From: an uncultured Planctomycetia bacterium
Lineage (GTDB): Bacteria; Omnitrophota; Gorgyraeia; JABMRG01; JAFGKX01
DNA: 64,000 nucleotides
Direction: 5' to 3'
Assembly: GCA_964570585.1 (NCBI GenBank)
Contig: CAZMYR010000001.1
Span: 17,441 to 81,440 of the forward strand
Made by a program: the position numbers and the translations under genes
The notes under the pieces: generated by a model
The model's input: the letters and a program-made list of their open reading frames with translations, nothing else
What the model was told of the DNA's origin: nothing
Database searches by the model: none
Shown: piece by piece, positions 1 to 58,133 of the stretch
How positions within the stretch are numbered: position 1 is the first letter of the stretch
How the letters are laid out: every line of letters begins with the position of its first letter

Positions 1-3000
1 TAGTTTGTGGCTATGTTGAATTTAATCACTCCTGCTTTGGCTAATACAGCAAGTTCTTCCATATCGCCTTCGATGGTTTCCGGCTGGACAATAGCTACAT
101 TAAATCTCTCGGCTTCTTTTTGCAACTCTTCTGTAAGCCAGGGACTTATCTTGTCCACCTGTGGTATAGGAGCCAATGTCTTCATATCATAATCTATGCC
201 ATGGCCTGAGCCATTATTTGTGGCAATAAGGTCAAAAGATAGGTTCTTTAATTTAAGATACTCTCCCATTACCCTTATAACAGCAGGATGGGTCATCTTG
301 GGCTCAAGCTTACCGTCACGTCTTGGGTTTGGCACTTTCTTATCAACCTGGCCCACCTCTATCACTTTTCCAAAATGGCCAGTTAATTCAGGAGTATGTT
401 TATCCACTATCCTATCTATATATTCAAGCTGATGCGCTGTCTCTTCTGCGTTGCTGGTAGGAAGAAGTAGTAGCTTTTGTTTCTCGCTTATACTCTTTGA
501 GACTTCTGGGCTTAGGTCACCTGCTATAGTAGCCCTGGCAACTTCTCTCATTATTTTGTCATAAGCAGCAATAACTTCATCTTCCGAAATACTTTCCACA
601 GGGCTCTTTTCGGAGACACCTGGCCCACGAACATCTTTATACATACGAGCTTTCTTGCGTAAAACGCCAAAGGCTGCATTCATATTTCTAACAACGCTGT
701 CAATCTTCCCAGGCGCTCTATTACGTTTTTTCATATTCGAGATAACTGTTCCTCTTATATGGTCAAGTCTTGCCATATTGTCTTTATCATATGGATTTGC
801 CTTAAGAAAATCAGCGCCCCATTCAAGCGGCAGCATAGAGTTCCTCTCCAGGCTAACAACTAAATCCTCAGCAGGCGTGCCATTTTTCTCATAATAGTCT
901 AAGACGGCCTCACCAGCTACTCCATCATAAATAGTTGAAGCATCTATGCCTATTGAGGTAAACCCTGCTTCAATTAAGGATTCAATATCACTCTTTATTA
1001 TCGCGCGCTCTGCGCTGAGATTATCATTTAACCTCCTCTGGACGGCTTCCAAGATTTTCACATCAATAGTATCAATTCTTATCTTATCATTATATGTACC
1101 CTCACCATTTTCCTTCTCATATTCCTCTTTCAATATCGCCTTTGCGTCAAATAAATAATCTTCATACTGAAGACGGCCACCATGTAAAACCAACGGGTTT
1201 TTAAATCCAATTCGCTCTGCTACTTCTCTTACATAGGCAACCACTCTTTTTTCATGTAAAGCATAACTAAGCTGGGAACGACCTACTGCAAAAATAACAG
1301 CAGCATTTTGGGCCATCGCAGCCTTGAGATGACCCTCAATCTGATTATAGCTGACGATATCGGCTGCTATTAATGCCTTCCTTGCCTTTTTTACAGCCTC
1401 GAATGCATCATGCCCGGGGGTAAATAAGCCCTCTGAGGGCCCAATTATAGTAGCTGTGCCGGTTGAGCCGACAGTTTCTATATACTGGTCATCACGGTGC
1501 TGGATAAGTTCGGTGATGGCCTGCTGGACCTTCCCTCCAGCTTCTTGGATAAGCATCTGGCGTGCTTTATTAGCAGCCGCTTCATCCCCGCTAATTGTCT
1601 TACGATCCCACTTTCTTATCTCAGCAATCCTTTCTTCAGGTAGTTTGCCTGCCGAGGAGGATTTTGCTTCAGCTATTGGGAGACCAGTAAGCTCCAGTGG
1701 CAGTGGCTGTATGCCACTTGCATCCTTAGTAATCAAAAATCCGCTATGTCGGTCATTGAGGATGGCGTTGGGGTCAAAGGTTATGAATATCTCATTGGTA
1801 AGGAAAGGGACTTCGTCCCCTGCCACCAGGTGCGAAGCTTTTTCTACAGGAAGGCGATGGATAATCACAGAATCGCCATCTTCAATAAAGTCAGGTTTTG
1901 CTTGACCGGTCTGAATAAATTTGGCTTGAATGCCTGCTCCGTTAACATCAGTAACTTCAAATAGATAACGAGCCTTAAGCAGAAGCTTCTGTCCTATCTC
2001 TATATAAGGAAAGTCTTCTTCTTTGCGCAGGCGGGCTACATCCATAACCGCTAATTTGTCTTTTACTCGACGGGTTACATAACGAGCAGCGAGTAACTCA
2101 AGGCCTAACCTTCCCTTATCATCATAATCATAATTCAGGGCAGTATTATACTTTGCTGTCTTGGCCTTTAGGCTTCTTCCGTATATTTCGCGAATAGCCC
2201 TGGCAAGCTCGTCAGGAAGCCTATATCCAAGGAAGGTATCCACCATTTCTCCCAAGTCCTGCTCTTCAGGAATTAGCAAAGGATTATCAGAGCCAAGCAT
2301 CTTTTCAGTCCAGTGGACAATCCTGTCAAACCCCTCTTTTCTTTCGCCTTTAAAGCTGTAGAAGTAGCCAAGATTATCTCTATTTTTCACCCTTAAACCT
2401 TTTATTATTTTACCCTCAGCCAGGGCCTGTAAGGTCTCTTCAATTAATTGCTCGGCTAATCTATCCAGTTGTTTCTGAATTCTTTTAGGCAGTAACTGAT
2501 ATGCTAAACGAGGCAAGACTTCATAGACTATCCATAGGTCACGACTCAAGATTATAGCTGCTTCGCCTTTCTCCTTAGCTTCCTCGGTTAAAAGGTCGGT
2601 TGCATCAACCTGCTCAAAGAAGCCATACATCCAGGTTGCGATTGCATTACGAACCTCTATGCTATCTCCATCAACCCTGGTAATAATCTCATTCTGGGTA
2701 TTCGATTTTCTGCTTAAGAAAGAAACAAAATATTGTCCTTCATCGCATTTTACATAATATTTTGCACCATCTATCAAATCTAATGCGATTTCGCTTACAT
2801 TATGTAAGGTCATGCCGGTCAGCTTAATATCTACAGGCTGAGCAGGTTTATAGATGTAATAAAGCGAACCATATTTTCTTTTCCCTTCTTGATATTGGCG
2901 CCTGGTGCCGGCTTCTTCAAACCCTAATTTTCCAATATACTTCTTAAATCTCTCTAAGACCCTATTGACTACCTTTTGCTTTTCATAACGGCCAAAGTTA

Positions 3001-3344
3001 GCATGCGTTCCTATCCTAACCTCAGGGCTGGCAAAAGACTTGGGTAACTCATTGTATGCATCAAGGAATGCCCCGAATGTCCTATCTCCCATAACCATGG
3101 GGACCAGCATCTTATTGGTTATCTCCACTGCGCTCATTTCTGCTCCGCTTAAAGGTTCCATTCCGTGACCGCTAACCTCTGCCCCTCCACCAATGCGGGC
3201 ATTGTTACGGAGGTTTACCAGAAGATTGGACTTGCGGCCTCCAAAAATCAGAGTCTCCTCATTCTCTGCCATTATACTGCCTTCTGTCTGTTTCATTTCA
3301 TCCTTCACATAACCAAAACCTACCGGGCCCTCTAAAACATCCAT
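1..3344 (-). CDS. Partial large multidomain protein, >=1114 aa; the C-terminal part continues past the window start. Ends in a class-II (Zn) aldolase-like module.
   Basis: Hand translation of the minus strand, codons topping at positions congruent to 2 mod 3. Verified codon by codon for 3-1673 and 3120-3360, with spot checks at 2400-2460 and 2880-2940; no stop from the ATG at 3342-3344 to position 3. Starts MDVLEGPVGFGYVKDEMKQTEGS. A possible SD (AGGGGAA) lies 13 nt upstream. Class-II fructose/tagatose-bisphosphate aldolase family signatures: SLIEAGFTSIGIDAS (941-985), IATNNGSGHGIDY (~200-240), GVIKFNIATN (12-41). Linker motif AEAKSSSAGKLP at 1638-1673. Absent from the supplied ORF track because it runs off the edge. 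Confidence 0.55.
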   Translation of the reverse strand, partial: MDVLEGPVGFGYVKDEMKQTEGSIMAENEETLIFGGRKSNLLVNLRNNARIGGGAEVSGHGMEPLSGAEMSAVEITNKMLVPMVMGDRTFGAFLDAYNELPKSFASPEVRIGTHANFGRYEKQKVVNRVLERFKKYIGKLGFEEAGTRRQYQEGKRKYGSLYYIYKPAQPVDIKLTGMTLHNVSEIALDLIDGAKYYVKCDEGQYFVSFLSRKSNTQNEIITRVDGDSIEVRNAIATWMYGFFEQVDATDLLTEEAKEKGEAAIILSRDLWIVYEVLPRLAYQLLPKRIQKQLDRLAEQLIEETLQALAEGKIIKGLRVKNRDNLGYFYSFKGERKEGFDRIVHWTEKMLGSDNPLLIPEEQDLGEMVDTFLGYRLPDELARAIREIYGRSLKAKTAKYNTALNYDYDDKGRLGLELLAARYVTRRVKDKLAVMDVARLRKEEDFPYIEIGQKLLLKARYLFEVTDVNGAGIQAKFIQTGQAKPDFIEDGDSVIIHRLPVEKASHLVAGDEVPFLTNEIFITFDPNAILNDRHSGFLITKDASGIQPLPLELTGLPIAEAKSSSAGKLPEERIAEIRKWDRKTISGDEAAANKARQMLIQEAGGKVQQAITELIQHRDDQYIETVGSTGTATIIGPSEGLFTPGHDAFEAVKKARKALIAADIVSYNQIEGHLKAAMAQNAAVIFAVGRSQLSYALHEKRVVAYVREVAERIGFKNPLVLHGGRLQYEDYLFDAKAILKEEYEKENGEGTYNDKIRIDTIDVKILEAVQRRLNDNLSAERAIIKSDIESLIEAGFTSIGIDASTIYDGVAGEAVLDYYEKNGTPAEDLVVSLERNSMLPLEWGADFLKANPYDKDNMARLDHIRGTVISNMKKRNRAPGKIDSVVRNMNAAFGVLRKKARMYKDVRGPGVSEKSPVESISEDEVIAAYDKIMREVARATIAGDLSPEVSKSISEKQKLLLLPTSNAEETAHQLEYIDRIVDKHTPELTGHFGKVIEVGQVDKKVPNPRRDGKLEPKMTHPAVIRVMGEYLKLKNLSFDLIATNNGSGHGIDYDMKTLAPIPQVDKISPWLTEELQKEAERFNVAIVQPETIEGDMEELAVLAKAGVIKFNIATN

Positions 3345-3392
3345 ATGCAGACGGATTCCCTGCTTTAAATATTCTTGCTTCATCTTCTCCAC

Positions 3393-8702: not shown

Positions 8703-8893
8703 TTTCAAATCTCCTCTTTTTTTTGTCATAGTCTTTCATAAATCTTTGCTTTGTTATGCTTAAGTTATAAAAGTCTTTAATTACCCGAATACAGCGCAAC
8801 CCTTTTGCCTCGGTTTGTCCCCCTCGAAAATTTTTTATGGAGACAGTAAAATCGAGGCCAAAGGGTTGTTTAAACGCTATAACTCTATAACCC

Positions 8894-18772: not shown

Positions 18773-18898
18773 CTCATCCTCCTCATTTGTTTAAAAAGTC
18801 TTAAAAAATCCAGGCACAAAAAATCCCTCTCATCTAAAGTAAACTCATTTTTGGAATCACTCCTGACTTAACCAGGTGGATTCTAAATTTTAGGTTTG

Positions 18899-18928
18899 GT
18901 TATACCCTTTCTGCTGTACTTTATGCAA
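18899..18928 (-). promoter_or_regulatory. Candidate sigma70-like promoter for the 3292-aa gene (TTGCAT-18-TATAAC on the minus strand)
   Basis: Read from the reverse complement of 18893-18930; sits directly after the upstream terminator. Confidence 0.3.
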
Positions 18929-24864: not shown

Positions 24865-25007
24865 AGTTAACCTTTATGCAGTAGTGAATGAATTTATTAT
24901 CGCGCACCCTTCGACTTTTGTATATTCTGCATCCATGGCAGCTTTAAATCTCCTAAACTTCCTTCTTTCTTTCATCTTAATTACCCTTTCTGCTAGGTTT
25001 GGGTTTG

Positions 25008-25122
25008 CCCACCAGCATCAAAAGATGCTGGTGGGCTGGGGGCTAAAGCCATGTTATATGGCTTTACTTTATTCCGTCATTGCGAGCCCTTGACGTCTTC
25101 GATGTCAAGGGCGAAGCAATCT
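25008..25122. promoter_or_regulatory. Two strong hairpins downstream of the giant gene's stop: GCCCACCAGCATC-AAAA-GATGCTGGTGGGC (25008-25037) and an imperfect ~20-bp stem around CCCTTGACGTC...GATGTCAAGGG (25078-25122)
   Basis: A perfect 13-bp inverted repeat is seen directly. No clear T-run follows, so a terminator or RNA-processing role is inferred only. Confidence 0.4.
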
Positions 25123-25174
25123 CAAACGTAGAGATTACTTCGGTTGACTCCGCCAGCTTCCATTAGACTTGATA

Positions 25175-52100: not shown

Positions 52101-55100
52101 TAATTGCCAGATGTAAATTCCACAATTACCGTATTTATAGAACCATCCCGTGCCATTTCCTCTAAAATGGCTTTTATCTCCTCCGGGTTCTTATCCATTA
52201 AATCTTTTATGGAATCGCTTTTTACTATATTATCTAATACTTTCCTAATTATATCCTCAATTATAGTCTGCCTATTTGCGCTCTTATCTTCTAACCTTGC
52301 TAATATGTCACTTAACTCCGATGTCATGCTATCTACATCGGCTACCTCTATATGCCCTTGATTTGATAATTCACCTAAAATTTCACTCACTTTTTTTACT
52401 GCCTCTTCTACTGTCTGTGACCTTTCAACCTCTTCTGCTAAACGCCTCAAATATCCCTCCATATACTGATCTGTAACTTTACCATTTTGCCTTACGCGCC
52501 TGTAATTCCCCTGGCCAATTCGTGAGCGATGAAGAAGAGAATCCACATGATTACTTACGGTCCTGTCTGATTCGCAATTTAGCAGTATGGAACCTACTTC
52601 TTCAGGAACACCTTCAGTAATCATCTCAGCAGGCAACTTGTGGTTTATATGTAACCGCTCCACTAAACCAGTGGTCTTCTGTCCGGAAGTGCCTTTATCA
52701 GGACACATAAAACCATAATCTGTACGTTGAGGTTTTGGCTCTTCGCCCTTTCCTGCTTCTGCTTCGCCTTTTTCTACTCTTGCCATTCGAATAAGCTCCT
52801 TGGAAGATACAAAAGGCAACTTATAATCATCTGCTGTATCTTTCCCAACAGTAGCTGAAGCTAAAGATATTCCTGAAACAAGTCCCATTTCAGGGTTGAG
52901 AACCTCCGGCGTTGTCATCGAGGCAGAAGACATCCTTTCTTTTTCAATCTTTAAGTTAGCATTATTTAACCTGTTTTCCTTTATTCTTACAGCCGTATCA
53001 AGCCCAAAGCTCCATTGTCTTCCTTCCAGCTTTCGGCCGCTTGCGTCCTTATCAATAATATTCAGCTTCCCTCCGGATACATCATATTGCTCTTTCCTGT
53101 TTTGATAAAGATATGCACCGAGCGCCAATTCCATATATTCCTGCCACAAATGGGTATCGCCTATGCCAAAAAGTTTTCCCTTATTTGCTTTATATTCATC
53201 TATTGTATCCAGTATTTGTCCAAGCCACACCTCTCCTGTTCTTTTAAAGGTTACTAAGGAATCGCCTCTTTTACAAAGTTCTCTATTAACATAAAATTTT
53301 CCGTTTCTTTCGAATATGAGCCTGTGTTTCCAGATAAGTTCATCGGCAATTTGTTGCATCCTGAGCCTTTGTTCAGCAAGGTCTGCCAACCCCTGTAGTA
53401 TGCCTGTCCCTGATATAACGCAAGGGGTAAACACATGTTTCTTTAAGGGGTTATCACCTTCATCAAAATAGATAAAGTATGTCTGCCCTTCCCGCACCAA
53501 TGCCAGGTCTTCTTCCTTTCTGGACATAAAGACATCATCCTCGTACCTATGGATGAAGTTATATATATTAATATAAATTACATCAGCTTCTTCAAAAAGC
53601 TTTCTTTCCGTGGTATCCTGCCTGTTGCCTTGCGCATCCACAAAATAGGCCTTTCTGTCTCCTGTTCCTGCCTCTGAAATAACATATCCTGTCTTAGCGC
53701 CAAAATATGCATTAACCCTGCCCGCCTTTCTTCCGTCTCTTTCTATCAGGTTTTCTTCGGTATGAATAATAGCCACATCTCTCTTGCCAGGCCTTTTGCC
53801 TGTTTTCTCACGTTCCCATACATAAGGAAGGCTCTTTAGGAGTGATGTGCCATTAAACACGAATGTCTTTCCGGCGGATGTGGGCATCTCTACTGCGGCG
53901 CCGTTTCTCATAACTTTAGCAACCGCTGCCTGAATCTTCCATTTTTCACGATCCCATTCAATCTCGTGGGTTACCGCATCCTCAGTAAGGCCGCTGGCCA
54001 CTATTGCCTGCTCTATCAATTCTAACAACAGGTCTTTATCAAAATCTACACCTTGTGATTTTAATGACTTTAAAATAACACTAAACCTATCCTGAAATTC
54101 TTCTATCGTCATCCGCTCAAGTACAGGCCCCACTTTTGCAACCTTTTCGCCTTCTGGCACCGCTGGTTTCCTGTCGCTTTCTACCCTTGCTTTTTGCGAG
54201 GTCTCCTGCAGCTGTGCGCGCAGCTTCTTTATAGTATCTTGGGCTCTGGCAAGTTCTTCTTTCTGCCTTGCTTTTTCCCTTCGGGTTTTTTCTAATTCTT
54301 CTTGAACTTCCGCAAGTTTTCTTTCTGCTTCCTCAAGCCTCCCGGTAAGTTCATCAAGTCTCTCGCCGGGAAATAAGGCATCAAAAAGCGGCGTATTTAT
54401 TGATTTGGCAACATCAGGGTCTACTTTAGAAAGGTCTATATTGCTTTCACTGCCATAATATTTTTCTTTGTCGATGCGGTGAAGGCCTCTGAAGTTTCCT
54501 AAAGTAATAGGAACCCGGCCTGCCAGAACCCTGATTCTTCTGCTTAAGGTATCTGCGTTGTGCTTAAACATCCAGGGCCGGATAGGAAATTTTATGCCCT
54601 GTTTTCCGAGTTCTTTATTTAAGGCAACTATATTTTTAAGTTTCTCAATAAATAAAACGCGATTGCTTTTAAGGCTTTTGCGTATTTCCTCAGATTTAAC
54701 AAGCCGCTCTGTATCTTCAGCTGCAAATTCTTTATTTGCCCCGATGTCTTCTAATATTCCTTTCAGAGTCTTTCCGGCAGAGGAGGCTTTGACTTTGGCA
54801 CCAGGAGCCAGGGTCAGTCTCAGTTTCTTATCCTCCTTATCGATTCTGTCAAGCCCGGCCTCATCATTTGCATATAATCTTTTTAGCTTATCTAACTTAA
54901 CTGCATATATATCTTTACCCTCTTCCCATGCAGATGTAAGCTCTTCGAGTCTTCTCTTAAAAAGTTCTTCTTTCGCTTTTTCTATCTTACTTCTTACATC
55001 TTGATAGGCATCCGCCCCTTTAAGGCGTTCAAATTCTTTGGTAAGGTGGGCGGCAACCTGAAATTCAACGCTCGATTTCTCTGTCGGCTTAATCGGTCTC

Positions 55101-57106
55101 TCTTCAAATCTTTCTAATGCGCGCGTTCTTTCAGCGCCTTCTAAAACAGATATATGGAATTTATCTTTATCATCTTTTGAAAGGGAAACCTTAAATACAT
55201 TCTCATAAAAACCAACCAAAATATAGGCATTTTCCTCATCTGGCTCTGCCCTGAAATTCATATGTTGGAGTATCCTGTTAAACTGTTCAGAAGTAACAGG
55301 CCCGGGCATTTCATCCTTTAATTGACTTTCCCCGAGCAGCCTTTTAAAATTACTAAACCAGGCTCCGTGTAATTCTTTTGCATCAACATTAGGATGGCGA
55401 AGATAAGCCTCTGCCGCGCTGCCTATTACCTCTGTAGCTAATCCGACTAAAATTTCCAAACTCTGAAGCATATTCGAATACAGGGTCGCAGCAGCAAGGT
55501 AATATTCGTTATTGGAGAGAATTTCCTCAAATGGCTCTTTTTTGTTTAAGATGATATCTTCATATGGCCTTTCTAATGCATTATGGGAAAATTTGGGGAG
55601 GACTACTATGTAGGAGACGCCTTTGTCTTTTAGGAGTTCTTTCACTCCCTGGGTGTGGAAACCACCGGTGATTAAGACTGCCAACTGGCAACTGTCTACG
55701 TCCATCTTGGCAAGGGTATTTTTGACTATTGCCTTGTCTCTTTTTGCTGCTACTTCATAAAATCTTTCTACTATCGGAAGGGTTTTTGCTATAATCCTCA
55801 TCTCAGGCACTAAGTTTGTGGTAATATTATGCTTTATCATCATCCTGGTAAGCTGGTGGGCTATTGCCTGAGGAATGAATTCATCCCGGTGAGCTTTATA
55901 ATAGGCGAGGTCTCTGTTTATTATCTTGGCATCCAAAAGGTCTACTAATATGTCTGCCCTTCTTGATATCCGGGCAAGTTGTCTCTGGTCATCGTTTTGG
56001 AATAATCTTTCTTCTATTTGCCATCCTAACTCATCCATCTCCTGAAAAAGTTTATCTTGTAGTACAGAGTCGTACATATTGATGTATTCTATGTAATTTT
56101 CAAGGTCCGGATATGCTGTAAAATCTATATCCGCCTTTTTGGCTAAATCGGATAAGTGGTTATGGAAGGTGGAGGACGGAATTTTGTTTAATCTGAAAGA
56201 GAGGCTTTCTGAAAGAAGTTTTTCTATATCCTTTTCGGAAAGTTTTTCTGAAAGAATATTTATAAGTTCTTTTCTTTGGGTTTCTGCTTCTTTAAAATTT
56301 ATTTCTTCTTCTAAGCCGGACGCCTTAAGAAGGGAAAATACGCTTTTATATTTTGATACATCTATTCCTAAAGAGCGGGCTAATCTACCAAGGTGCTGCC
56401 AGTATTCTTTAAATGAGAGCCTTTCGGTTTGATAGGCCCGCCTTTTCTGGTCTAATTCTATTAATCTTCCGGAGTAGATTCCCTTTTTTAGGTCTGAGAC
56501 GGTCTTTTTTAATGTTATGACTGCCTTGTGGATTTCACCTTTGTTATTAAGAGATTCAATATAGGCGCTGACGTTGTCTTTGTAGAGTTGAGGGTCTTCT
56601 GCGCCGTATAATTTTACGTTGGATTTCGATATCGCTTTATAGTATTCAGCGGCATTTATCTTTCCGCGGTTTAAGAAATACTGGGCAAGGTCTTTTCTTA
56701 TTTTATCATGGGGGTGAGAAGAAAGGGGTGAAACATCTACAAAGCCATAGGCGCCTTCGAGCAAAATCAATTTAAGGTTGTAATCTTTAACTAGAACGCC
56801 AAGGAGTTTGCTTATCGATTCCTGCGCGCCTAAATTAGAGTGGGCATCCTGGATATGAATTATAATGCGGTTATTGCCGGCATCAAAGACTTCTCGGACA
56901 ATTCCGTAATCTTCCGGAATGGAGATTTTGGAAAGCTTAACAAAATCCTTAGCCTGCGCATTTAATACCTGATTGCCTCTTACAAATGACCATAAATGTG
57001 TTCCGTTTCCTGCCCAGGCTATCTGCTGGACAAAAAAACAAAAGGCTACAAATAGACTAATAACTTTTATAATTAAGCTATATCTACCTGTAGCCTTTTC
57101 TATCAT
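25175..57106 (-). CDS. Giant membrane-anchored multidomain protein, 10,643 aa (a 31.9-kb gene). N-to-C order: TraB/GumN-like region, SF2-helicase-like ATPase, 10-12-helix TM bundle, ~900-aa coiled coil with internal tandem duplication, Pro-rich linker, long beta-rich regions, three further polytopic TM bundles, HExxH motif, HEAT repeats, DUF218 (SanA/YdcF/ElyC-like) module.
   Basis: ORF track entry: single uninterrupted ORF. ATG at 57104-57106 with an AAGGGGG / AGGG SD-like run upstream. The N-terminal hydrophobic segment LIIKVISLFVAFCFFVQQIAWA is a signal anchor. Domain calls come from motifs read in the translation (see sub-features). Confidence 0.85.
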   Translation of the reverse strand: MIEKATGRYSLIIKVISLFVAFCFFVQQIAWAGNGTHLWSFVRGNQVLNAQAKDFVKLSKISIPEDYGIVREVFDAGNNRIIIHIQDAHSNLGAQESISKLLGVLVKDYNLKLILLEGAYGFVDVSPLSSHPHDKIRKDLAQYFLNRGKINAAEYYKAISKSNVKLYGAEDPQLYKDNVSAYIESLNNKGEIHKAVITLKKTVSDLKKGIYSGRLIELDQKRRAYQTERLSFKEYWQHLGRLARSLGIDVSKYKSVFSLLKASGLEEEINFKEAETQRKELINILSEKLSEKDIEKLLSESLSFRLNKIPSSTFHNHLSDLAKKADIDFTAYPDLENYIEYINMYDSVLQDKLFQEMDELGWQIEERLFQNDDQRQLARISRRADILVDLLDAKIINRDLAYYKAHRDEFIPQAIAHQLTRMMIKHNITTNLVPEMRIIAKTLPIVERFYEVAAKRDKAIVKNTLAKMDVDSCQLAVLITGGFHTQGVKELLKDKGVSYIVVLPKFSHNALERPYEDIILNKKEPFEEILSNNEYYLAAATLYSNMLQSLEILVGLATEVIGSAAEAYLRHPNVDAKELHGAWFSNFKRLLGESQLKDEMPGPVTSEQFNRILQHMNFRAEPDEENAYILVGFYENVFKVSLSKDDKDKFHISVLEGAERTRALERFEERPIKPTEKSSVEFQVAAHLTKEFERLKGADAYQDVRSKIEKAKEELFKRRLEELTSAWEEGKDIYAVKLDKLKRLYANDEAGLDRIDKEDKKLRLTLAPGAKVKASSAGKTLKGILEDIGANKEFAAEDTERLVKSEEIRKSLKSNRVLFIEKLKNIVALNKELGKQGIKFPIRPWMFKHNADTLSRRIRVLAGRVPITLGNFRGLHRIDKEKYYGSESNIDLSKVDPDVAKSINTPLFDALFPGERLDELTGRLEEAERKLAEVQEELEKTRREKARQKEELARAQDTIKKLRAQLQETSQKARVESDRKPAVPEGEKVAKVGPVLERMTIEEFQDRFSVILKSLKSQGVDFDKDLLLELIEQAIVASGLTEDAVTHEIEWDREKWKIQAAVAKVMRNGAAVEMPTSAGKTFVFNGTSLLKSLPYVWEREKTGKRPGKRDVAIIHTEENLIERDGRKAGRVNAYFGAKTGYVISEAGTGDRKAYFVDAQGNRQDTTERKLFEEADVIYINIYNFIHRYEDDVFMSRKEEDLALVREGQTYFIYFDEGDNPLKKHVFTPCVISGTGILQGLADLAEQRLRMQQIADELIWKHRLIFERNGKFYVNRELCKRGDSLVTFKRTGEVWLGQILDTIDEYKANKGKLFGIGDTHLWQEYMELALGAYLYQNRKEQYDVSGGKLNIIDKDASGRKLEGRQWSFGLDTAVRIKENRLNNANLKIEKERMSSASMTTPEVLNPEMGLVSGISLASATVGKDTADDYKLPFVSSKELIRMARVEKGEAEAGKGEEPKPQRTDYGFMCPDKGTSGQKTTGLVERLHINHKLPAEMITEGVPEEVGSILLNCESDRTVSNHVDSLLHRSRIGQGNYRRVRQNGKVTDQYMEGYLRRLAEEVERSQTVEEAVKKVSEILGELSNQGHIEVADVDSMTSELSDILARLEDKSANRQTIIEDIIRKVLDNIVKSDSIKDLMDKNPEEIKAILEEMARDGSINTVIVEFTSGNYYQLKDMVEELSKYKNVIIVSTNLSGRGVDFKGDKMVAISTYCPLTVEDIQFRGRVARNGKIGFWIGVWSLKDDIFIKYRNIIQEELGYFERKTKGAQVYDLKFNLDSEKSKEAKENLKVIEQMREAINDHEQNMRRQEIEFGKFTGKEFNMPQIKFRLQIVRHGIAPLIEKEILDAIAQRIVKAATNFIGGSQKATLSREDILRFMETEFGKDILPLLKAELQLEKDATPPKACELIYDIITDHLKSKALEIIHEGWMKFTDEAGRSKHRLQQASSRPGYERTFLNPQQIYGEIKRLTALSYKTMERQREEKMGKEVTALAHHLAGVIPPEQQQIEAAKELAKKRKISLGDRFKRSSLKILPAAFAIAANIGLAFFLGWVFKALTVGGVGTALGLPVIGNLLSVLLAAGPVGLVVIGVVAIMITWALNSQIKRLSQTDTAAAKMANAIALGEQTTWKDALEAAGLSTWRKTLTIMATFSPFVGAMALLSLVGTAPFTAPTVGAIFFLASAVLGIIGLISSLALLGTARKDLSQAPRLPMSTPKRFFRAFIGGFLTTLGVSALLVAAVEASALMLFVPGLSAVALGGILAYRIFAYSNDSIAKNRWMIIAGFGAGILIGFLGLGLTALFGAFVINSVTAAIAAGSISGGGILAIIGYPIMGLFAIQGVLLMMSQWRFSQRIAENEAIIKGETEAKRISRLAYVGRAAALNARAVMIAAGAILGIVLLFVGGWAVPLAISGTVLFIIKGITALSLLGIATWLGFRTEAIITKRMEKRLDYSHLAKSQAWTFNGSIRNLSASGLGDVSESIRNAVKNFKDNVTGTQNPLQLSFNVLAEAAGKHRLMQEFLEQMQAHSPPKDGGFFSQPEIDLMIFKIPSEILPDEQKPAFRKAITDALVELNIAKVGFSRLSHLARDPEKVTKALNAILMPAMGVSMLASAPAAVVAQSQHEGVAYTKAEINVAEAPKQLLDYCTLLASRAIDNIIHAPQVSEQTPAEIVIDWEGQFKQLRQRIKEGQQQRKRLALYRKFAPDAEEKFKSQIEDAHKELSEAVTDPDKVTAQIRLTELIRAQQEYILEQIRNSATDEQKEELDIIKQRLEDIETLLSLRQQIEQLDTFLNQQKRTLKGLKEQRASEEKEEAQKELDKEIETLTLQISAVEQELNDLIESYNKEAEEKNISARLTVALREIRQKLLISEIGIGPHIVRVEDIADIEREIEQLNNALQRLRLKKEHSTRLAAYARLAPDAEERFKPGIEKAQQELGQAETPLEKTTAQAKLAELMLAQQKYILEQIQKKATDEQIKEAEQIKTQLANIAGLLSLQPRIDQNLLKKVQEIDPDFPAEDLTKERLLQEQEKLLAPEVGIPAHIVHLEGEIKRLEQRLQLLEQLVQILQREYEEPEAGTVVPPPPPERAAQAERAAKVEKPAEEKRPAQPAQPQAQPAIAPENIPQLEALLGELGQLLQKENELSAQARSIEEARSELAESIRELGLIDLAARLNEHSLRYRIKDIIDSSSDTTRKILPLRDQQAALQKKIQAITEKLSQQAQALPQFQAFKEQLTKLEKALADTTNSLTQLEQEIDPAINKELEYITQLEAVLEQLEELNKRQDELTTQQRKLAAARAQLTEKARRLGITDPNVLVSLQILRAAIKAVIKTIPPAAVQPVTQPVVAARQEDILRRHKDVPTMPMNDEAKQAWEEFKKRAKKLVEKNEELSEEAQNDLKKQLELIADDIQRRMKAKEYYKIQKEKAESDAEGGLEQFLRFIVDYDEYKRTHKWYAAEMFEHMDKRFKLKFHIGTPTSLGAGLVRLGDGNFIGVETPNNFNLQQVLDVVGAGLAGTDISPEAYPALALAVLYELTTAPAIKEVEEKGGGLLPDAFCVHVWVNNPQNLLYESKKIKGEDGEKRTSINIIEGNWTKAKLAGPQNFTDLPHMLVTWLRLALGDELGTYQFAPEQLMVWLLAAADTEVDTDTAYWSIERPDVELGEELTTEELRRLGFEGLEDIKSLREIKAALTKNRKFLGIFGQDAIIAEANSFVEGKGFYVYHPKNPEKAYFFKVSDQKIYHTDARLTQIQEACRYVYLRDGRGNRIKENGRYKLQKQVLYQLRMYDERVRKFLESDRPEENRWLKEGHMFLIPTGRDMQRMSQIITYMQEARGAVLIDPQTGKPFFSEDIPSIIPANMPLARKNTFTRANDGESFLMTQSFVSRRGELVMPSLRDMDLRYQLFTGKRILCGVRLDETTEIVDEEGLLPANLIFRRIPIKRFERAKDAEGNLIRQKLTRPERDFYKRLLKQLEDRLKRVNEQLRFAAGTTEQAKLKESAEALKKNIELFEDILKNGKPKIKEVTRYEYRIETKDKAYLESLGFTEVDKKEAAHLYFMPNVEEVNLKTEYGQPVRIEVDVDGRITSVTIDGKDIDQDSLEINLGAVIENEQNFVAGFEADVVKNIKAIIYTPDAIYLQDIEGRLRDISGNIITEYKSLEGKPLALHIIKENRVIDLFGKKINYPGIGEVTLGEDTLVSFEYPNQVTYIDSEGNPQVIPAVIEYTDTHHQMEEKRQEAEASRTIGDRLPYLGERTFGYQLNPYTRIPTVREPKVEETALGLFETEYGKKIRAYILENIKRFGGKKGLVKRLLDITEKSPQAIEEELKKEAESASLSLEEYKQILYLYLKRNEEHLISRQNIRKERLQSVIRMLEQTGALTAKLQYERYFQALQLQYNQWQKEVIDDINGLIQEYQDEQDELRQRIEQTEETIADNPGMDPAMKQALENYILSCEDGIEGIEANIGGMQSDIDRYGVAVDFENNPNGANNRWTELQRYARNVNWGYYGQMDFEDYLAQMPEEAREEFLEILARDAGYFKYREETIIDAYDWYLGLDASEARLSMAAEAVLDKSFKFLLEERHMRMLRTKVLGQITPEVEEDLEKTLAASSKQIRAYLEDAVEKIAAKEEWSAEYTQRALSHVRDFSVKIALNRDAFSDLIFTYEELHNIGFGEVTGFDWINWERLLALPIGYELNTRTSAIEDIYRINRNARVHGLLVNHKLADGKFIKLVALPLEIEWEGKDKKSAGTLMAGPFAGEYIEYLDLDMVSNRRKFTETTSTVYGLFAHPSIDINDRVMLSGVGLLAVNEGNGLNQVEGTTTAMGGKIDYTVSGNFSLFAKTGWVDGKATGITNIHDFDGNPIGIKPSAKASIFNTGAGFNYTDPRTGIKMTLGLERFGEDSGVDSGIETPYIDIADNLQARFEGRAFLGSETLYSSGLEFAYGEIPTTKDMLDEAKAWIKRTSLPTEEVRGMPWPGLTGEVRIDEAMEEFGVSPARSPMTSGTQHFIRQMAQNPTGFPTRPGLSFTLTRNNVYVAESDEGLAPQIYETYLDIFNRKARSIKPVSEQEATAFFNDRIGVDNAERKIPGQREDITSSVRLGLSMLRHIKRYPEADISEQIGSYLYQLAEDILRRQGKDGAIYADKRHTEINPLDNLTVRKFLNEYSKHLRIKPGKPKRYTKAAERITRWVNRNRALIWNRQYNRVYSRITAGQTKGLFGLFKSIKYKQKEPGNLREALAWLLFLEEGEVERVTGSDLRSILHSIGKDNHKTVTARIEEGTGQYREVTISGIGEKEGEVDVEATLLRAYVYKQKISPSLIGVVNHNLQDSAITTAGGSFPRYIREGSVIDRGRADPGITAFYRLVYRQGIPDDKLAGEEAQRQREIDEKYKKFIQEARKRQQYIEEATEGRGLKRYLFVPSFTAAKLYDFTEYNFVNHTGQIKIEGLFKGDTDKYIEEIERYRRMSETDINIDKIEAQALLIGNTDKRTLAERYHIIKTVQDDGSVVYLLEAEEKGKPRKIILTAADKLLVDKKTGRLLKVVHLPEIMRATLAALIEYRNLLGGKNGLAVSWDTFKVEELTGQDFNRILVLGYMTPEQRELCYVNIDETTADDGRILHYIALPGGERHYLEGLVYTPEMMEEEAVFVEDEKGNLVEKTLFELSDIKKDSEGYYVIIDEERYKETGGKEGREDLDADIPVPMQYAPSLDIRYMRLIPQDGRLPKVVMCLSKARINEELTRIQDNYAIIRVSDGEDEYIKTKEGLSKYALRKKLIVDKYTKKAHLVTFARVEINGEWNWYPVDFVKESLDGKDANKGYLQLGFNWADVVKEKISEDKSKNEVVYEVYNKVTKKSSISTFRNGWLVRKEEEGIWLPDEGFVDIATTYHEEKGYPLKTIRVDDGSLFYDFSEITYFEDIGHVTGFTKRKAYKIRAYTRTEYDRSGHRVAEIRFTLDEQSRIIEEENIVNGEFTIITYKDSGEEDLRITFENKDKYKERKRDEYIEIAKAFKETQTIENIQKALKLGIVSIPVSLGNFFIGYQYAPAQKDVKYKTFNSLEELDASGYVRFTEVKAAKNFRLDDGWQDIEFFDIRHDGVRIAKAINGEISFAVLNKARKVIGENTYKYNEATEQIGELKRYSNNSRRVYIGINPGVGAVSDGELNPQNTTVAVLASKPATGYDKVITATASDVHEMKNGEEREELQWVHIEYAKGNSEIEQANDRSAYARDKRFVVDIRHLGLETKDGKAIEQLNFICKDNNLANIEERPKEYSSKHKVKEELREFAVVAIIKGDTFGDKITRAFYGKSLYEAQKKFIEFENKPENKGIEIEETIKGRVSEVHSTTDAFTYVGIFEPQKGGMRRIKIENYTLNGQKPINIDATTQVYGTLSVELLDSKGNPKGALLYYIDENEMAFEGRKADEVAENPRNVEMKPEGEEKDNLKLTLKEVAGEIDKYAPIATDVKKRQPDGTLKPVAVNIDKLGRTVGYYDVQKRIFSYSRYDELNQEEGEHAFKLNEGEKLFETALDIARLESWSADPESGHYKGQSYVYIVDTTKLDISDDKLKEVGIGRGRYILTAADLTELGINRYAPAVERIVRIAQMHNNKSNVPIPPLALYCARIPGRDKTYARIWDDTVEIVIKHKSQNPQPGDVVSKTYERIDNPNGTIGFDKFFGKSVRVNFEDLPQAAKDRMNKHGHGAGVINDYYIAFYRLEQDDRKVYYEDMNKLPDGRWLSMIVDSEGLLYYLIRRFSFGNAIYTVINYDRRGFEDNSITYDVVLDENNNIIKETKKREDDVVKRDIMRNPYLPDMLAGRYIVKKSTKYAPNGDILYTGEVWVDARTGEERLVIDRRIGSKGEPAQKIVYSLPEVTDTPFAYHTLVPGNHLDLRLANGRDDASGFEFLYFYLDADKDTVEFEVEVTDGRTTKKVPLWIPVGMNKIHFKNGKEADRYSVVVAPIDSIQHGNIRVLSIQALKDAGIDITSIEAVRLYYKGAEPIRLGFTTVQLLGDGAISGRGKELKRIYKNHIISGVDVDSDHILATFTSRQGTTTFRIMDRDGSHLLGVRSPRLEANQPRWYTTVYDVNSNQDEPIPRYILDANGNFISLCKMAKLPDGRVAIYEIPDPDGIAGNVLTVVNPAIMNQLEGVVALAYGDNYDIVYPVKGDDWLGRHFSALHVNVVPTVARKLGLLKDPNVDEEVKKRAPKITTIEEYENRYKQIKLLPTLFENLTLPYSEEVAPLAIGGVELDAAVEMLINSQNEKTGLIPTSPYSDYVDTVYELKYIVPFLLRSKKDEALAAVKKILEFYSNQRTIDGKQKALTRFYHLYTGNPEELILKSAEDEVVVFESKATALAQIAAADAAFKLAEKAEREEDKLAAIATARRFLETALSFRRKAGDDGFAQYMEYAGKEKVYYPVGTNSEAYLLLKYVDELDKDTLPEEIKKRLEEININIADVLKKQKEWLINHVLPVLEEQGCVPKSIREVKDWRSGKIRLLAEFLSSPDDWLSFLEAANVMGVNGGKLKASLDNLVRAHGVTVDGKWGLDWKNKITLRREGDAISPELTARFLRMAVKLNHGNATNWAIAELNKYPSVGASLMPELIVKDFDKISQNNVDSGQGFIIIPGSPSISTAEILLDAEGRVIESTMPAVPVAQRDTERFIADYSIETWINASSLLVAALIILGVSRHLIVKSRVAKTKPAKRKRHPKTGSPPVIPDGDKEPTEDQKMPISTRILKWCSGAGAVTATAFGIMAFLFDLPVIFAILSGLASIYTIRRIITLIFIRRAFVNSNINIRGPDGQEREIVHYNADPNARQIEYLCLDEEYRPEGRLEGRKRVFDNLPNIPLLTSIAESVILSHEKIHAAGYGEIVACTMTWTLSFSIIKNALTSLLSGIKRWFLKLSRRKKITVITSVVVGVVAVAFLGLSPAAAILIKWLAAHWNVVLLFVLPTYKLVVLIYSRIWQTTAQRYYRRAKDETPSEILGTEKEREQIINAAHKRFADKVLETVTPFMSNKERQLFIKRKFTASDARAEVTFLYSLMAIYNLIFAKEVSDIKDNNPGMELRHAILKAKTTRGLDSLDNYVKDLGSYFGREIVKGNYVFDVDEKEDRVEIHVHVRPDAERGDYVNGKLRLEKVLEQFGALPGRPNRYLNAFNNLTQAQKDALQSYTMSKEEFDGLPATIRYMLRRARVPGKYNNALISHLETYLFQIRGRIRDAIVQGAEQEDDGEYRGILEESGITEGTFRREEYEKFSKTKGPRGVNPILFRISDFLPDFVLLMLNILHFGTQAGITGSAAGLWYGITTALASLSLSWLLIPVIIFISAALIINIITECYSLAHFNGKGIARKFLAVVPVAGIVFLSMLSLPGMGIGAVLLLMLVKSILALEAFSLLAFSRSLLGLMVYDVSRPSAYVGRPRAVLLVLMQHIIFLTVGTFMGSASLNWFGLHFGEHLLRTWWSAFAFFRAAYLMKTGTYHFMTFIFSWLKPTKGPGKDSLPLTGKPLAEAEKQKRSEEKTLIIYVGDPLDSPSRGKPADITKEVMRAWSALPKKYKDGSIEKIMENMGYDYKGWRALDLDGLPLFKVLLKDKKITEKDLYDWVDFMHKAEHDSEVMFVTPDQFEEDMPRDLRIGIKRSDDKDAPLDYNLTNEEKAKILLGAEIARHVTELMAVSKCRDVAANLYTKSVALGKEGIPDKFNFLIVQNQIKEYEQEGQVASRWAEGKAPGFVKWQKKLARLIELGSNIGYQKYLDERGIQAADRETRRCRAETFRHSTPFSCKAGAMNAMFTKPELMVGATSMVIVDRNATKLNTPKFAEDVMRMRENPNISIMPAYRNTTFLGTPTAISSFLIEFGHGQAMHGIVDKVGTGWENISSVSYRKLLAKELGLNYPLAPITRGMEQFSNSYLDRFFGMIGYSPNAPHQSEDLVAVLLEVYNKISLGEVPESAISEAIAFKMRESFGLDEWSGKAPTRWSGGLYQAEGEPLVQFANHMGPESYFEKRIRRGYGSYFMDSPMSLLNIIALPFEILFNATPFIGVHIIYWMIGTFYNQILRLNGMLARIRARGFLVGFGEWIETLFFDMILFAPRLGIEAFGQIRAYLGLTYEFVASKAETKIDSLSVNKGIFVIERIKSIRDYFTRDILKNLKSDTQGFLGGLKAVMVLGAIMFIFNLWAISILGISNVVLLGIHLIFTSGMLLGPYVMFNPIGDRPGNIAYFMAKVFGAALGIGVMVGLGLGITIAGWWALAPTLAGLVFIGYLFRQYQRAVEEMVKTHPERARIISTIFRSFAISAFLSVWIVAAAAVPLPIALDVPFWVLNANRLILVFAGLITLPLTFVIISHLADNVLFKKYSRKISDLEKRYYDMRRGQGHPEMRYEIAVGGDLVQELRILWHQRAYKLIKQETKDLKELLPQIAPESKKLRANKIKILIKKIKNIIKYFARNNSIFLLLSSLSMLLTGCFRNKDKMSKDEISLLILLIIFITPFVLGILKEFYEWWGEVSPYWDARCKIWHMRLKRYRAIIIALGAIGDDRAKQVLFNKATTDSPNRVKAAIILGGLGDKRAAGSLFKLLHESNVSARTKAKAIRVLKKLGCNVDTDFKQLSQPYPATTTVTDVVPSVTATATYSDGRVTLTATEGEFKPGEKKKLEQHLTRAFSEQGIKDDVTFTVVVSSDQEQVGQHKPSIIEINRYLLQEPWLEQLKTGTKEETKEEFAKRQARHTKTYDAFLHGVVWHEVWHLNHPDALEYEALEATVEYFKANPELLKAAEVVLYPQVKNALFGDEWRAILRQARREPDTDVDAQLQELASSSLKLYYPVKTSKSSPSGEKKIYPESRSALDKKYDTLHNETRKKIEQDRGITRDDLTRNRDYYTETGQPLTGQAVGAVIEWPKQPQSQELIANLVSLQEQIARDIPGDIVLWSKPQRTTPAENGAVGFHTSVFSSKKDYKGDAPEDILLKTDSVKRILEKAEPFDVTFEGAILSSVGIVMAIGYVDNPQLTQIRDNMSGIFPKKIFPGSFRQDAVHVVLGRVNRPVSADELKQLFDAVNKNRNKYIGKATANNILYAVWEGPITQTYCSRELANVSLTQTEGKTKASSAGTVLKKEIIDALVKIFDYLAQRDTEQPSADLLWLFGNSRLEYIMRAEELYRAGNVKNIFISGGVGHETKFLITNLKKAGYKLPIFDEIPDIEKKSNQELKTAGVSEARLIKETLIMKGVDESHIIIETASTQTEENVRNGLDVLSAEVNSSDSEDRRAEKQKVRDNHCSLNELDTVILMQHPMLQRRTVATYDKIVNGPENSSYLRIRRIGYAPPIDTSTLIDEFPYFAELAVEEVPKLTEYGPAGKGFMVAVEIPADIQKAKEELARFIGKTTPPPESTSTIGAAGKPSVTKTEAPKASSAGEIKVQVEELNKNKTASFAGVENIAAIENIIYSNQDIPQEDIEAAKQALLAVLQDEKADIFVREMATYALRLFADRYVIKSLMEVAASKEVAKAPPAKEPMPEQIRGLNLTQIADYSLEYQIAKALLDYAPEGEIAVKLNNQAIVIYSDALKESRALQQLVLSAGRDGRKFCLVNKERNMHTLLASLEVKGITRDHFDYVFTAQMNVENIAYKLQSKDGITQVRVFASAKEDLDVWTRQKVVEALIMLLKDKRFEIISDLSDLHEDYIREHEQVLSQA
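26500..26900 (-). other. DUF218 (SanA/YdcF/ElyC-like) module near the C-terminus
   Basis: LLWLFGNSRLEYIMRAEELYRAGNVKNIFISGGVGHET, verified at 26630-26760. It matches the R-x-A-x-LY...-ISGG core of DUF218. Confidence 0.45.
27990..28025 (-). other. HExxH zinc-metalloprotease-like motif (VVWHEVWHLNH)
   Basis: Seen in translation at 27931-28030. A single short motif is weak evidence. Confidence 0.25.
28430..28660 (-). other. PBS-lyase/HEAT-like repeats
   Basis: RAIIIALGAIGDDRAKQVL ... AAIILGGLGDKRAAGSL ... AKAIRVLKKLG. This is the repeated xALxxxGDxRA pattern. Confidence 0.45.
28740..34010 (-). other. Three further polytopic TM bundles (about 33300-34010, 31750-32600, 28740-30250) separated by soluble regions
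   Basis: Examples are ISTRILKWCSGAGAVTATAFGIMAFLFDLPVIFAILSGL, KITVITSVVVGVVAVAFLGLSPAAAILIKWL, PDFVLLMLNILHFGTQAGITGSAAGLWYGITTALASLSLSWLLIPVIIFISAALII and KAVMVLGAIMFIFNLWAISILGISNVVLLGIHLIFTSGMLLG. Coordinates are approximate. Confidence 0.5.
46600..49300 (-). other. Extended coiled-coil region followed by a Pro-rich linker (PPPPPERAAQAERAAKVEKPAEEKRPAQPAQPQAQP, about 47790-47900)
   Basis: Heptad-like Q/E/K/L-rich sequence over ~900 aa. Coordinates are approximate. Confidence 0.5.
48200..49190 (-). repeat. Intragenic tandem duplication (two ~636-bp / 212-aa units) inside the coiled coil
   Basis: Protein units LALYRKFAPDAEEKFKSQIEDAHKEL...ILEQIRNSATDEQKEEL and LAAYARLAPDAEERFKPGIEKAQQEL...ILEQIQKKATDEQIKEA. 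They are mirrored by the paired antisense ORFs 48240..48500 (MYFCCASISSANLACAVVFSRGVSA...) and 48882..49193 (MYSCCARISSVSLICAVTLSGSVTA...). Confidence 0.7.
49790..51020 (-). other. Polytopic transmembrane bundle 1 (about 10-12 helices)
   Basis: Runs of Ala/Gly/Leu/Ile/Val-rich ~20-aa segments, e.g. AAFAIAANIGLAFFLGWVF, GLVVIGVVAIMITWAL, IIAGFGAGILIGFLGLGLTALFGAFVI. The Ala/Pro-rich plus-strand ORFs 50166..50813 and 50838..51134 are their antisense shadows. Confidence 0.6.
51830..53930 (-). other. SF2 helicase-like ATPase module (Walker A, DEGD, motifs V/VI) with a long insertion
   Basis: EMPTSAGKTFV verified at 53858-53890 (P-loop). Further motifs are FIYFDEGDNPL (motif II-like), IIVSTNLSGRGVDF (motif V-like) and QFRGRVARNGK (motif VI arginine finger). 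Confidence 0.55.
55600..56900 (-). other. TraB/GumN/PrgY-like region at the N-terminus of the giant protein (tentative)
   Basis: RIIIHIQDAHSNLGAQESIS and AVLITGGFHTQGVKELL resemble the two GTAH / GAAH motifs of the TraB family. The similarity is weak. Confidence 0.25.
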
Positions 57107-58104: not shown

Positions 58105-58133
58105 TTGACAAAGGGCACACATTGTGTTATATT
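58105..58133 (+). promoter_or_regulatory. Sigma70-type promoter TTGACA-17 nt-TATATT driving brnTA
   Basis: -35 box at 58105-58110 and -10 box at 58128-58133, with consensus spacing. Confidence 0.55.

Follow-up and report, generated by a model that had tools for sequence, protein, structure and literature searches.

A four-gene array of giant open reading frames of the Omnitrophota type, encoding a 10,643-residue membrane protein with a predicted SecA-like ATPase

Open reading frames (ORFs) exceeding 20 kb occur in the majority of Omnitrophota genomes, for instance in 77 of 116 Velamenicoccia, and a giant protein of Velamenicoccus archaeovorus was found to be up-regulated in prey-attached cells (Seymour et al., PMC10066038). 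Here, we analyzed a stretch of 64,000 nucleotides of the contig CAZMYR010000001.1 (termed the window), in which four consecutive giant genes, A to D, are located on the minus strand. The largest of them, gene D, encodes a polytopic membrane protein of 10,643 amino acids (aa). We think it probable that the locus belongs to the Archaeovorin-like 'multi-enzyme' giants of Omnitrophota (PVC), that D would be exported by means of its own motor, and that the gene products would form an envelope coat carrying out sugar chemistry where the cell contacts a host or prey.

The closest described systems are giant proteins of Omnitrophota. Full-length giant genes of Omnitrophota contain numerous transmembrane (TM) regions, and most of the giants have divergent SecA DEAD and preprotein-binding domains that lack a canonical membrane association (West-Roberts 2023, bioRxiv 10.1101/2023.11.21.568195). 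The adjacent TM regions were proposed to anchor the SecA domains, and the proposed role is export of the giant itself. The Archaeovorin type has many HEAT repeats as well as PGM/PMM and fructose-bisphosphate (FBP) aldolase domains; its enzymes are 'predicted extracellular', which was flagged as a possible topology error (bioRxiv 10.1101/2023.11.21.568195). An interaction with the prey cell wall has been proposed in the literature on these proteins. In a survey of 916 Omnitrophota proteins of at least 10,000 aa (10 kAA), 94% had TM helices or signal peptides, with a mean of 22 helices (Nielsen & Lui 2026, bioRxiv 10.64898/2026.06.07.730766). The same survey describes a 'multi-enzyme metabolic' class with a sugar-metabolism module including PGM/PMM, and a cluster of 20 proteins with a SecA DEAD-like (PF07517) architecture. 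The giants were overwhelmingly sequence-unique and frequently flanked by mobile elements, and 46% of the long Omnitrophota proteins were TM-only, with their bulk in the cytoplasm. In another phylum, a report on Apilactobacillus kunkeei (PMC12863079) describes five consecutive genes, Giant1-5, whose products, 3,000-8,000 aa long, are extracellular surface proteins linked to aggregation and cell interaction. Giant1-5 resemble genes A-D in being consecutive same-strand genes for very large proteins with signal peptides, which occupy much of their locus.

Gene D shares with Archaeovorin (type: the 39,678-aa protein of V. archaeovorus LiM) a signal-like N-terminus, a domain-poor N-region, divergent SecA_DEAD and SecA_PP_bind domains beside TM regions, many TM helices, HEAT repeats and relatives in metagenome-assembled genomes (MAGs) of Omnitrophota. 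PGM/PMM and FBP-aldolase-type domains occur in Archaeovorin and in the present locus, here on gene A, and both D and Archaeovorin are mostly unannotated. In contrast, Archaeovorin exceeds 30 kAA while D has 10.6 kAA, and no glycosyltransferase (GT), methyltransferase (MT), glycoside hydrolase (GH), peptidase or NUDIX domain was detected in D. The Archaeovorin enzymes lie inside the giant ORF, whereas the sugar-phosphate enzymes of the present locus are encoded by three separate downstream genes. Archaeovorin-type loci often have genes resembling type II secretion systems (T2SS) or type IV pili (T4P) upstream and pilZ and sugar-import genes downstream, an arrangement that is frequent, not strictly defining. 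Here, a BrnT/BrnA-like pair, IscB, a Fic protein, a response regulator and a histidine kinase are encoded upstream, and C, B and A downstream. With its 10,643 aa, D is above the 10 kAA used to define giants and below the stricter limit of 30 kAA; A, B and C are shorter than both. D is at the small end of the known range of Omnitrophota giants.

A similar picture emerged for the clusters of Nielsen & Lui. Like members of the multi-enzyme and PF07517 clusters, D is longer than 10 kAA, belongs to the class with signal peptide and TM helices and has 27 TM segments (mean of the survey, 22); the locus shares the sugar module with PGM/PMM, a mobile-element flank (IscB, toxin-antitoxin) and the scarcity of homologues. 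Unlike the multi-enzyme class, D is almost devoid of Pfam enzyme domains, the enzymes being found on its neighbours, and the starch-synthase/GT1 content typical of the module is absent from the locus. Since every major feature fits published descriptions, we regard the locus as a new instance of the described Omnitrophota giant class and not as a new system. A first-pass annotation of the window, made from its sequence alone, had recognized clustered giant genes of the Omnitrophota kind, and the combination of SecA-like, TM, HEAT and sugar-enzyme domains indeed matches both surveys (bioRxiv 10.1101/2023.11.21.568195 and 10.64898/2026.06.07.730766). Its statement that the architecture corresponds to no described system was too strong, because this combination has been described for Omnitrophota giants. 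The ATPase, membrane bundles, coiled coil and embedded enzyme domains that it listed were all recovered by Pfam, hydrophobicity and composition scans. The tiled hidden Markov model (HMM) searches and structure prediction that it recommended yielded a domain map and a model of the SecA-like motor with a mean predicted local distance difference test score (pLDDT) of 80.7.

The giant genes and their coding status

In a six-frame scan, four very long frames of the minus strand proved to be free of stops (3-8735, 8897-18790, 19165-24873 and 25178-57112). They correspond to gene A (3-8702; at least 2,900 aa, with its start at 8702 and its 3' end beyond the window edge), gene B (8894-18772; 3,292 aa), gene C (19162-24864; 1,900 aa) and gene D (25175-57106; 10,643 aa). 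Together the four genes take up 87.8% of the window, and they are separated by spacers of 191 bp (A/B), 389 bp (B/C) and 310 bp (C/D). The first-pass annotation gave the lengths of B, C and D and of these three spacers exactly. It counted five ORFs over 89% of the window, splitting the region of gene A into two ORFs, a partial one of at least 1,114 aa and one of 1,769 aa, with a 48-bp spacer between them. No such boundary was found, as the frame of gene A is free of stops from 3 to 8735 (2,911 codons). The TAA on the plus strand at 3393-3395 reads TTA (Leu) in the gene A frame, and translation continues through it (...FKLLVEKMKQEY...). Therefore, the array consists of four genes and not of five. 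The annotation also assigned to each gene a Shine-Dalgarno (SD)-like site and a signal peptide or anchor. SD-like sites are present upstream of A, B, C and D, and the N-termini of A, B and D agree with the assignment; both features are weaker in C.

Based on the base composition, 693 in-frame stops were expected in gene D and none is present (log10 P(no stop) = -311). For genes A, B and C, between 133 and 220 in-frame stops were expected in each, and again none was found. The remaining five frames hold 53-903 stops each, and 313-903 in the case of D. Gene D shows clear codon periodicity, with a G content of 0.32-0.37 at codon position 1 versus 0.14-0.17 at position 2, and this excess is constant over all 32 kb, in every block of 1,000 codons. 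The stop statistics and the uniform periodicity bear out the earlier view that the 32-kb ORF is intact and not chimeric. Mis-assembled repeats, which had been named as a case against the array, were not seen. Direct or inverted DNA repeats of at least 30 bp are absent from the window, and only four tandem repeats, all trivial, were detected, which makes repeat mis-assembly unlikely. Moreover, two independent JGI metagenome contigs match the window, one at 100% (59457-61815) and one at 99.96% identity (23845-26256). The latter spans the last 1.1 kb of D, its stop codon, the spacer and the first 338 codons of C. By exact sequence matching, B, C and the flanking proteins map to a single NCBI contig of 113,767 bp. 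The giant ORFs A-D are real and coding. In tiled BLAST comparisons, no paralogy of A, B and C with one another or with D was detected.

Gene D and its relatives

The region of D from aa ~987 to 1970 (51197-54148, minus strand) has the layout of a SecA-like ATPase, comprising nucleotide-binding domain 1 (NBD1), a preprotein cross-linking domain (PPXD), NBD2 and long helices following NBD2. Pfam searches detected SecA_DEAD (1.2e-9), SecA_PP_bind (1e-5) and Helicase_C (2.8e-5), and sequence matches in the PDB were exclusively SecA. Comparison of the motor profile with E. coli SecA by hhalign gave a probability of 98.4% over SecA residues 95-444, and the PPXD aligned to SecA 189-361 with both hhalign and phmmer. 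Among the NCBIfam models, secA and secA2 scored best; TIGR00963 reached 53 bits versus an equivalog cut-off of 800 bits. Neither a wing domain nor a C-terminal tail was detected in the motor, and hhalign found no match beyond SecA residue ~444. Because of this low score and the missing match past residue ~444, D is regarded as the carrier of a SecA-like domain and not as a SecA orthologue.

The same assignment was obtained at the level of structure. An AlphaFold2 model of D aa 960-1900, based on an alignment of 43 sequences, reached a mean pLDDT of 80.7 and a predicted TM-score (pTM) of 0.81. In a Foldseek search of the PDB with this model, the 23 top matches were all SecA or SecA2 (E 7.5e-20 to 6.7e-14), and RIG-I-like helicases came next, at 1e-6 only. 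The alignments cover almost entire SecA chains, and the best TM-score was obtained for SecY-engaged SecA (5eul_A; 0.66, normalised to the target). In the model, a helix of 53 residues follows straight after NBD2, at the position of the SecA scaffold helix. The motor contains TSAGKT at 1076 (Walker A), FDEGD at 1214, GRQWSFGLDTAVRIKE at 1362, TNLSGRGVDF at 1690 and QFRGRVARNG at 1719. Walker A, the DExD-like box, RxWSxGL...KE, TNxxGRGxD and QxRGRxxR are common to D and its relatives. Judged from sequence and model, the D motor is a predicted divergent, motif-complete SecA-like ATPase. It resembles canonical SecA and SecA2 in the order NBD1-PPXD-NBD2, in the ATPase motifs, in the RxWSxGLxxAxxxKE signature and in its fold. 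It differs from canonical SecA in being embedded in a protein of 10,643 aa and fused to a 12-TM domain that is not SecY-like, in a helical insertion of ~100 aa within NBD2, and in having no detectable wing or C-terminal tail. A SecA two-helix-finger motif, seen by eye at 1918-1965, scored 33 versus 36 +/- 5 for shuffled sequences and was discarded.

Directly after the motor, at aa 2029-2612 (49271-51022, minus strand), D contains a membrane domain of ~12 helices, which is 38-60% identical across the six related loci described below. SecY was tried as an identity for this domain and rejected, as hhalign of a 7-sequence profile against E. coli SecY gave a probability of 0.07%; a Pfam SecY match is also absent from D. 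An AlphaFold2 model of the domain built from four sequences (pLDDT 46.6) was too poor for a fold search. The membrane domain is followed by a coiled-coil-like helical region recognized by a composition scan (aa ~2664-3323; 47138-49117, minus strand), in which two local tandem duplications were found (2664-2780 versus 2875-2994, E 7e-24, 48-50% identity; 3077-3180 versus 3217-3323, E 1e-6, 34-38% identity). These are the sole internal repeats detected by tiled BLAST in the 18.7 kAA of A-D protein, and they are hidden in a whole-protein self-BLAST.

Hydrophobicity was assessed by a Kyte-Doolittle scan, not by DeepTMHMM. It detected 27 hydrophobic 19-mers in D, namely the signal-like N-terminus and 26 others in four clusters. 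The N-terminus (aa 1-33; 57008-57106, minus strand; MIEKATGRYSLIIKVISLFVAFCFFVQQIAWA followed by G) has K4, R8, a hydrophobic stretch at 11-29 and the motif AWA before the G, and it resembles a signal peptide of the Sec pathway or a signal anchor. The homologues of three related loci (L003, L004 and L007) begin with a comparable helix, after which W/FAAGGDLRW is found (MASGGDLSW in L007). Behind it lies a conserved N-terminal domain (aa 58-534; 55505-56935, minus strand), which by tblastn/blastp is 30-33% identical to an ORF of L003 (690-2447), to the locus L005 and to the protein P0012. This domain has no Pfam or PDB match, and a Tiki/TraB/ChaN-like identity was dropped for want of support from either database.

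Downstream of the coiled coil, about 4,300 residues (aa ~3300-7600) show neither a TM segment nor a domain match. They are followed by three TM clusters (7641-7932, 8286-8408 and 9119-9457) in the region of aa 7641-9457 (28736-34186, minus strand), the loops of which are Pfam-dark. The C-terminal region (26126-28663, minus strand) comprises a HEAT/alphaRep-like stretch (aa ~9482-9575) and a DUF218/YdcF-like domain (aa ~10106-10327), detected as Pfam HEAT_2 and DUF218 and by PDB matches to alphaRep (2.9e-16) and YdcF (2.9e-6). The DUF218/YdcF family is tied to envelope biogenesis. In 1,000-aa tiles of D at E<=1 and in tiles of A-C at E<=0.1, GT, MT, GH, peptidase and NUDIX domains were undetected. 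A processive glycosyltransferase at aa ~8420-9120, suggested by a SED...TRW spacing seen by eye, found no Pfam or PDB support and was dropped. Two HExxH motifs at 7831 and 9700 are not significant (~0.4 estimated by chance) and are not claimed. We noticed that an internal stretch at aa ~9400-9427 (~28820-28900, minus strand; ...KYFARNNSIFLLLSSLSMLLTGCF...) resembles a lipoprotein signal peptide with a lipobox. Going by this resemblance, it could be the trace of a formerly separate lipoprotein gene that was fused to D, or an internal processing site.

Relatives of D were searched for at several scales. A word-indexed search of 5.8 billion proteins gave no match for the motor region, and word-indexed searching with the core alignment of D matched only one protein (P0001), named Candidatus Omnitrophica hypothetical protein. 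When 1.84 billion cluster representatives were scanned exhaustively with HMMER, 55 matches were obtained, two of them at <=1e-30 and 12 at <=1e-10. These relatives are mostly fragments of large proteins, several of which have the same order of motor and TM domain; P0012 shares the N-terminal domain in addition to this order. In every relative found, motor and TM domain are co-linear. The D family is rare. When one genome per GTDB species was scanned, six loci related to D were obtained, four of them in Candidatus Omnitrophota MAGs, one in a 'PVC group bacterium' and one in a 'Clostridia bacterium'. They resemble D only over aa ~58-534 and ~961-3109 and have no counterpart to its remaining parts; some of the relatives are alike one another further downstream. 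At 35-55% identity, the relatives keep the catalytic motifs. In L003, the counterpart of the N-terminal domain is a separate upstream gene (690-2447), which indicates that genes of this family have been fused or split. In L003 and L007, the giant gene comes after three same-strand ORFs of 586-1,070 aa that are Pfam-dark; clusters of large dark genes around a motor-bearing giant thus recur. For gene C, a single homologue was found among the 5.8 billion proteins (P0056, 52% identity, on a contig too short for a comparison of gene order), B had no relatives in JGI contigs, and a further metagenome scan for the locus returned only the same organism.

Genes A to C and the surroundings of the array

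In A, B and C, a hydrophobic segment is present at the N-terminus only. The signal-like N-terminus of A ends in AFA before an Asp and that of B in WA before an Ala; the one of C is weaker. Gene A encodes a catalytic and cupin pair resembling type-I phosphomannose isomerase (aa 508-931), a PGM/PMM-like domain (aa 1471-1823) whose phosphoserine loop reads TASHN and whose metal loop reads DEDKDR, and a class-II FBP-aldolase-like domain (aa 2432-2507; 33.8 bits versus a cut-off of 25.5 bits). Gene B contains a UAP/UDPGP-like domain (aa 100-304), a GlmU-type nucleotidyltransferase (aa 1900-2170; AAAGLGTRM, Pfam NTP_transf_3, PDB GlmU at 4.6e-11) and an AUDH-type cupin (aa 2205-2464; Pfam AUDH_Cupin 7.8e-38, PDB 4a7k 1.3e-19). 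Gene C contains a UDP-glucose pyrophosphorylase-like domain with GGGTSGR (aa 1145-1356) and a CYTH domain (aa 1676-1823; PDB 2fbl and 3typ at 2e-17). The key catalytic motifs of the enzyme domains in A-C are intact. Read from their family assignments, these domains would lead step by step from hexose phosphates of glycolysis, Fru-6-P or Glc-6-P, to NDP-sugars (isomerase, mutase, pyrophosphorylase), and a sugar-modifying cupin and a triphosphate hydrolase would be added to this series. Three of the domains are NDP-sugar pyrophosphorylase-like, and the first two steps would fall to a Fru-6-P/Man-6-P isomerase and a hexose-phosphate mutase. The coherence of the pathway is deduced from the established functions of the named families.

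Several putative expression signals were found in the spacers. Upstream of D, two near-consensus sigma-70-like promoters are located at 57449-57421 (TTGACA-17-TATAAT) and 57270-57242 (TTGACA-17-TATACT), both on the minus strand. A consensus promoter-like site lies upstream of B (19080-19052, minus strand; TTGACA-17-TATAAT with TG). These promoter calls are no more than matches to the consensus. Directly past the stop codon of D, two GC-rich hairpins (25008-25111, minus strand) may act as terminators or in processing. The window contains just two copies of the 13-mer AGCAGAAAGGGTA (0.18 expected), at 18903-18915 and 24982-24994 on the sense (minus) strand. One lies in the spacer upstream of B and the other in that upstream of C, both immediately 3' of GC-rich hairpins, and the 13-mer may be a shared regulatory or processing element. 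The spacer between D and C also holds an upstream ORF (uORF) of 33 codons (MKERRKFRRFKAAMDAEYTKVEGCAIINSFTTA, 24876-24977, minus strand), which is in the frame of C and ends with TAA plus 9 nt before the ATG of C. It starts with RRxxxR, similar to the opening of a PilZ domain, and is far too short for a domain test. Giant genes of Omnitrophota are often followed by a pilZ gene; here, D is followed by this uORF with its PilZ-like start, which may be a remnant.

The region upstream of D holds several further genes. Two overlapping plus-strand ORFs of 104 and 90 aa (58124-58694) match BrnT (2.6e-7) and a CopG/BrnA-type antitoxin (4.5e-6), both slightly below the Pfam cut-offs; they are a predicted type II toxin-antitoxin pair between D and the IscB element. 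The latter is divergent from D and lies ~1.7 kb upstream of it. Its 491-codon ORF (58840-60315, plus strand; RRXRR 1.2e-63 plus HNH) encodes an IscB-type nuclease, and its 5' end is overlapped by a HEARO RNA (58770-58991, plus strand; Rfam RF02033, 119.7 bits, E 3.8e-24). We take the HEARO RNA together with the RRXRR/HNH ORF to be an IscB nuclease with its omega RNA, that is, an OMEGA-type mobile element. The true start codon of IscB is probably downstream of the HEARO RNA. A DUF4172-Fic protein is also encoded upstream of D on the plus strand. A response regulator of 394 aa (61622-62806, minus strand) combines a receiver domain (3.5e-22) with a C-terminal phosphopantetheine-attachment domain resembling acyl carrier protein (ACP; 2.4e-11), an unusual output domain for a response regulator. 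It adjoins a GAF-HATPase_c histidine kinase (62826-63992, minus strand).

Possible roles of the array

In the favoured reading, D would be an envelope protein anchored through its roughly 27 hydrophobic helices. The conserved core of D (aa ~960-3100) consists of the SecA-like ATPase fused to the ~12-helix domain and the coiled coil. The motor would sit next to its own membrane domain, facing the cytoplasm, and with ATP it would thread the distal parts of D, which are very long and lineage-specific, into or through the membrane. Possibly, the motor would also export A, B and C, which bear signal peptides. The products of A-D could then constitute an envelope-associated 'coat' that activates or remodels sugars where the cell meets a host or prey. 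The coherent enzyme set of A-C with its intact catalytic signatures argues for such a coat.

Several observations weigh against this reading. The only hydrophobic helix before the ATPase of D is aa 11-29, which is signal-peptide-like and N-in by the positive-inside rule. Since no other helix precedes the motor, an ATP-dependent motor would come to lie outside the cytoplasm, a topological paradox. This topology is the main difficulty, and it extends to A, B and C, whose signal-like N-termini clash with the need of their enzymes for nucleoside triphosphates (NTPs) and sugar phosphates, which are cytoplasmic metabolites. In addition, ~7,000 aa of D carry no annotation, and no adhesin or dockerin, GT, GH or peptidase domain was detected in A-D. 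The 7 kb upstream of D contain no type II secretion, pilus or clear pilZ genes. No homologues of A, B or C were found near the D-like genes of the related loci, whose flanks were limited to 10 kb, and no phylogenetic marker gene, tRNA or rRNA is present in the window. Finally, the closest relative of D (50-55% identity; L005, WJOT01000045.1, 36731-55643), all 18.9 kb of which are an uninterrupted ORF (at least 6,304 codons), carries the label 'Clostridia bacterium'. The data suggest mis-binning or mislabelling of this contig.

The difficulty with substrates would disappear if the array encoded a membrane-tethered metabolon facing the cytoplasm. The N-terminal helices would then be uncleaved anchors, ATPase and enzymes would stay inside, activated sugars (GDP-Man, UDP-Glc, UDP-GlcNAc-like) would be supplied to a glycan of the cell's own envelope or storage, and the SecA-like module would only insert the TM segments of D. 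We hold this to be possible, if somewhat doubtful. Enzymes and ATPase with intact catalytic motifs need cytoplasmic substrates, D has a DUF218/YdcF-type domain, nearly half of the long Omnitrophota proteins (46%) are TM-only with cytoplasmic bulk and a sugar-metabolism module is known from them (bioRxiv 10.64898/2026.06.07.730766), and the prediction of such enzymes as 'extracellular' may be erroneous (bioRxiv 10.1101/2023.11.21.568195). However, canonical AXA-type signal-peptidase sites follow a short positive N-region in A, B and D, the proteins A, B and C lack a second hydrophobic segment for retention in the membrane, and no glycosyltransferase that could use the activated sugars was detected in A-D.

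A more far-reaching version of self-export, which we consider unlikely, would make the core of D a self-contained, SecYEG-independent translocon that exports its own distal 7,500 residues along with A, B and C, resulting in an extracytoplasmic or host-directed nucleotide-sugar pathway. If true, this translocon would represent a new type of dedicated secretion system whose cargo genes belong to one operon-like array with it. Alternatively, A, B and C, perhaps together with parts released from D, might be exported effectors that enter a host or prey cell and divert its pools of cell-wall precursors. Such a role is consistent with signal peptides on enzymes that can work only where NTPs and sugar phosphates exist, and with the up-regulation of the V. 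archaeovorus giant in prey-attached cells (PMC10066038). It is nevertheless purely inferential; no translocation, pore-forming or toxin domain was detected and no secretion-system genes are found in the window, and we regard it as improbable. The metagenomic origin of the sequence and the lack of homologues for most of D could also point to an assembly chimera, mis-assembled repeats or a pseudogene array. An artefact or decay of this kind is very unlikely given the stop-free frames (0 in-frame stops versus 133-693 expected per gene), the uniform codon periodicity, the absence of long repeats, the identical independent contigs, one of them across the D/C junction, and the SD-like and promoter-like sites; relatives at 35-55% identity that keep the catalytic motifs also speak against it.

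We know of no Omnitrophota giant protein that has been biochemically characterised or has a demonstrated function. These proteins are among the largest predicted proteins known, and their size of 30-147 kAA makes experiments nearly impossible. The locus described here is a compact, 'unbundled' example, with a motor-membrane core of ~2,100 aa and the enzymes on separate genes of 1.9-3.3 kAA, of which gene A has at least 2.9 kAA. It sharpens the paradox of the class, namely that ATP- and NTP-dependent domains lie behind signal peptides. Owing to the unbundled layout, ATPase activity of the motor, dependence on SecY, the mutase and pyrophosphorylase activities and the topology are testable with ordinary constructs.

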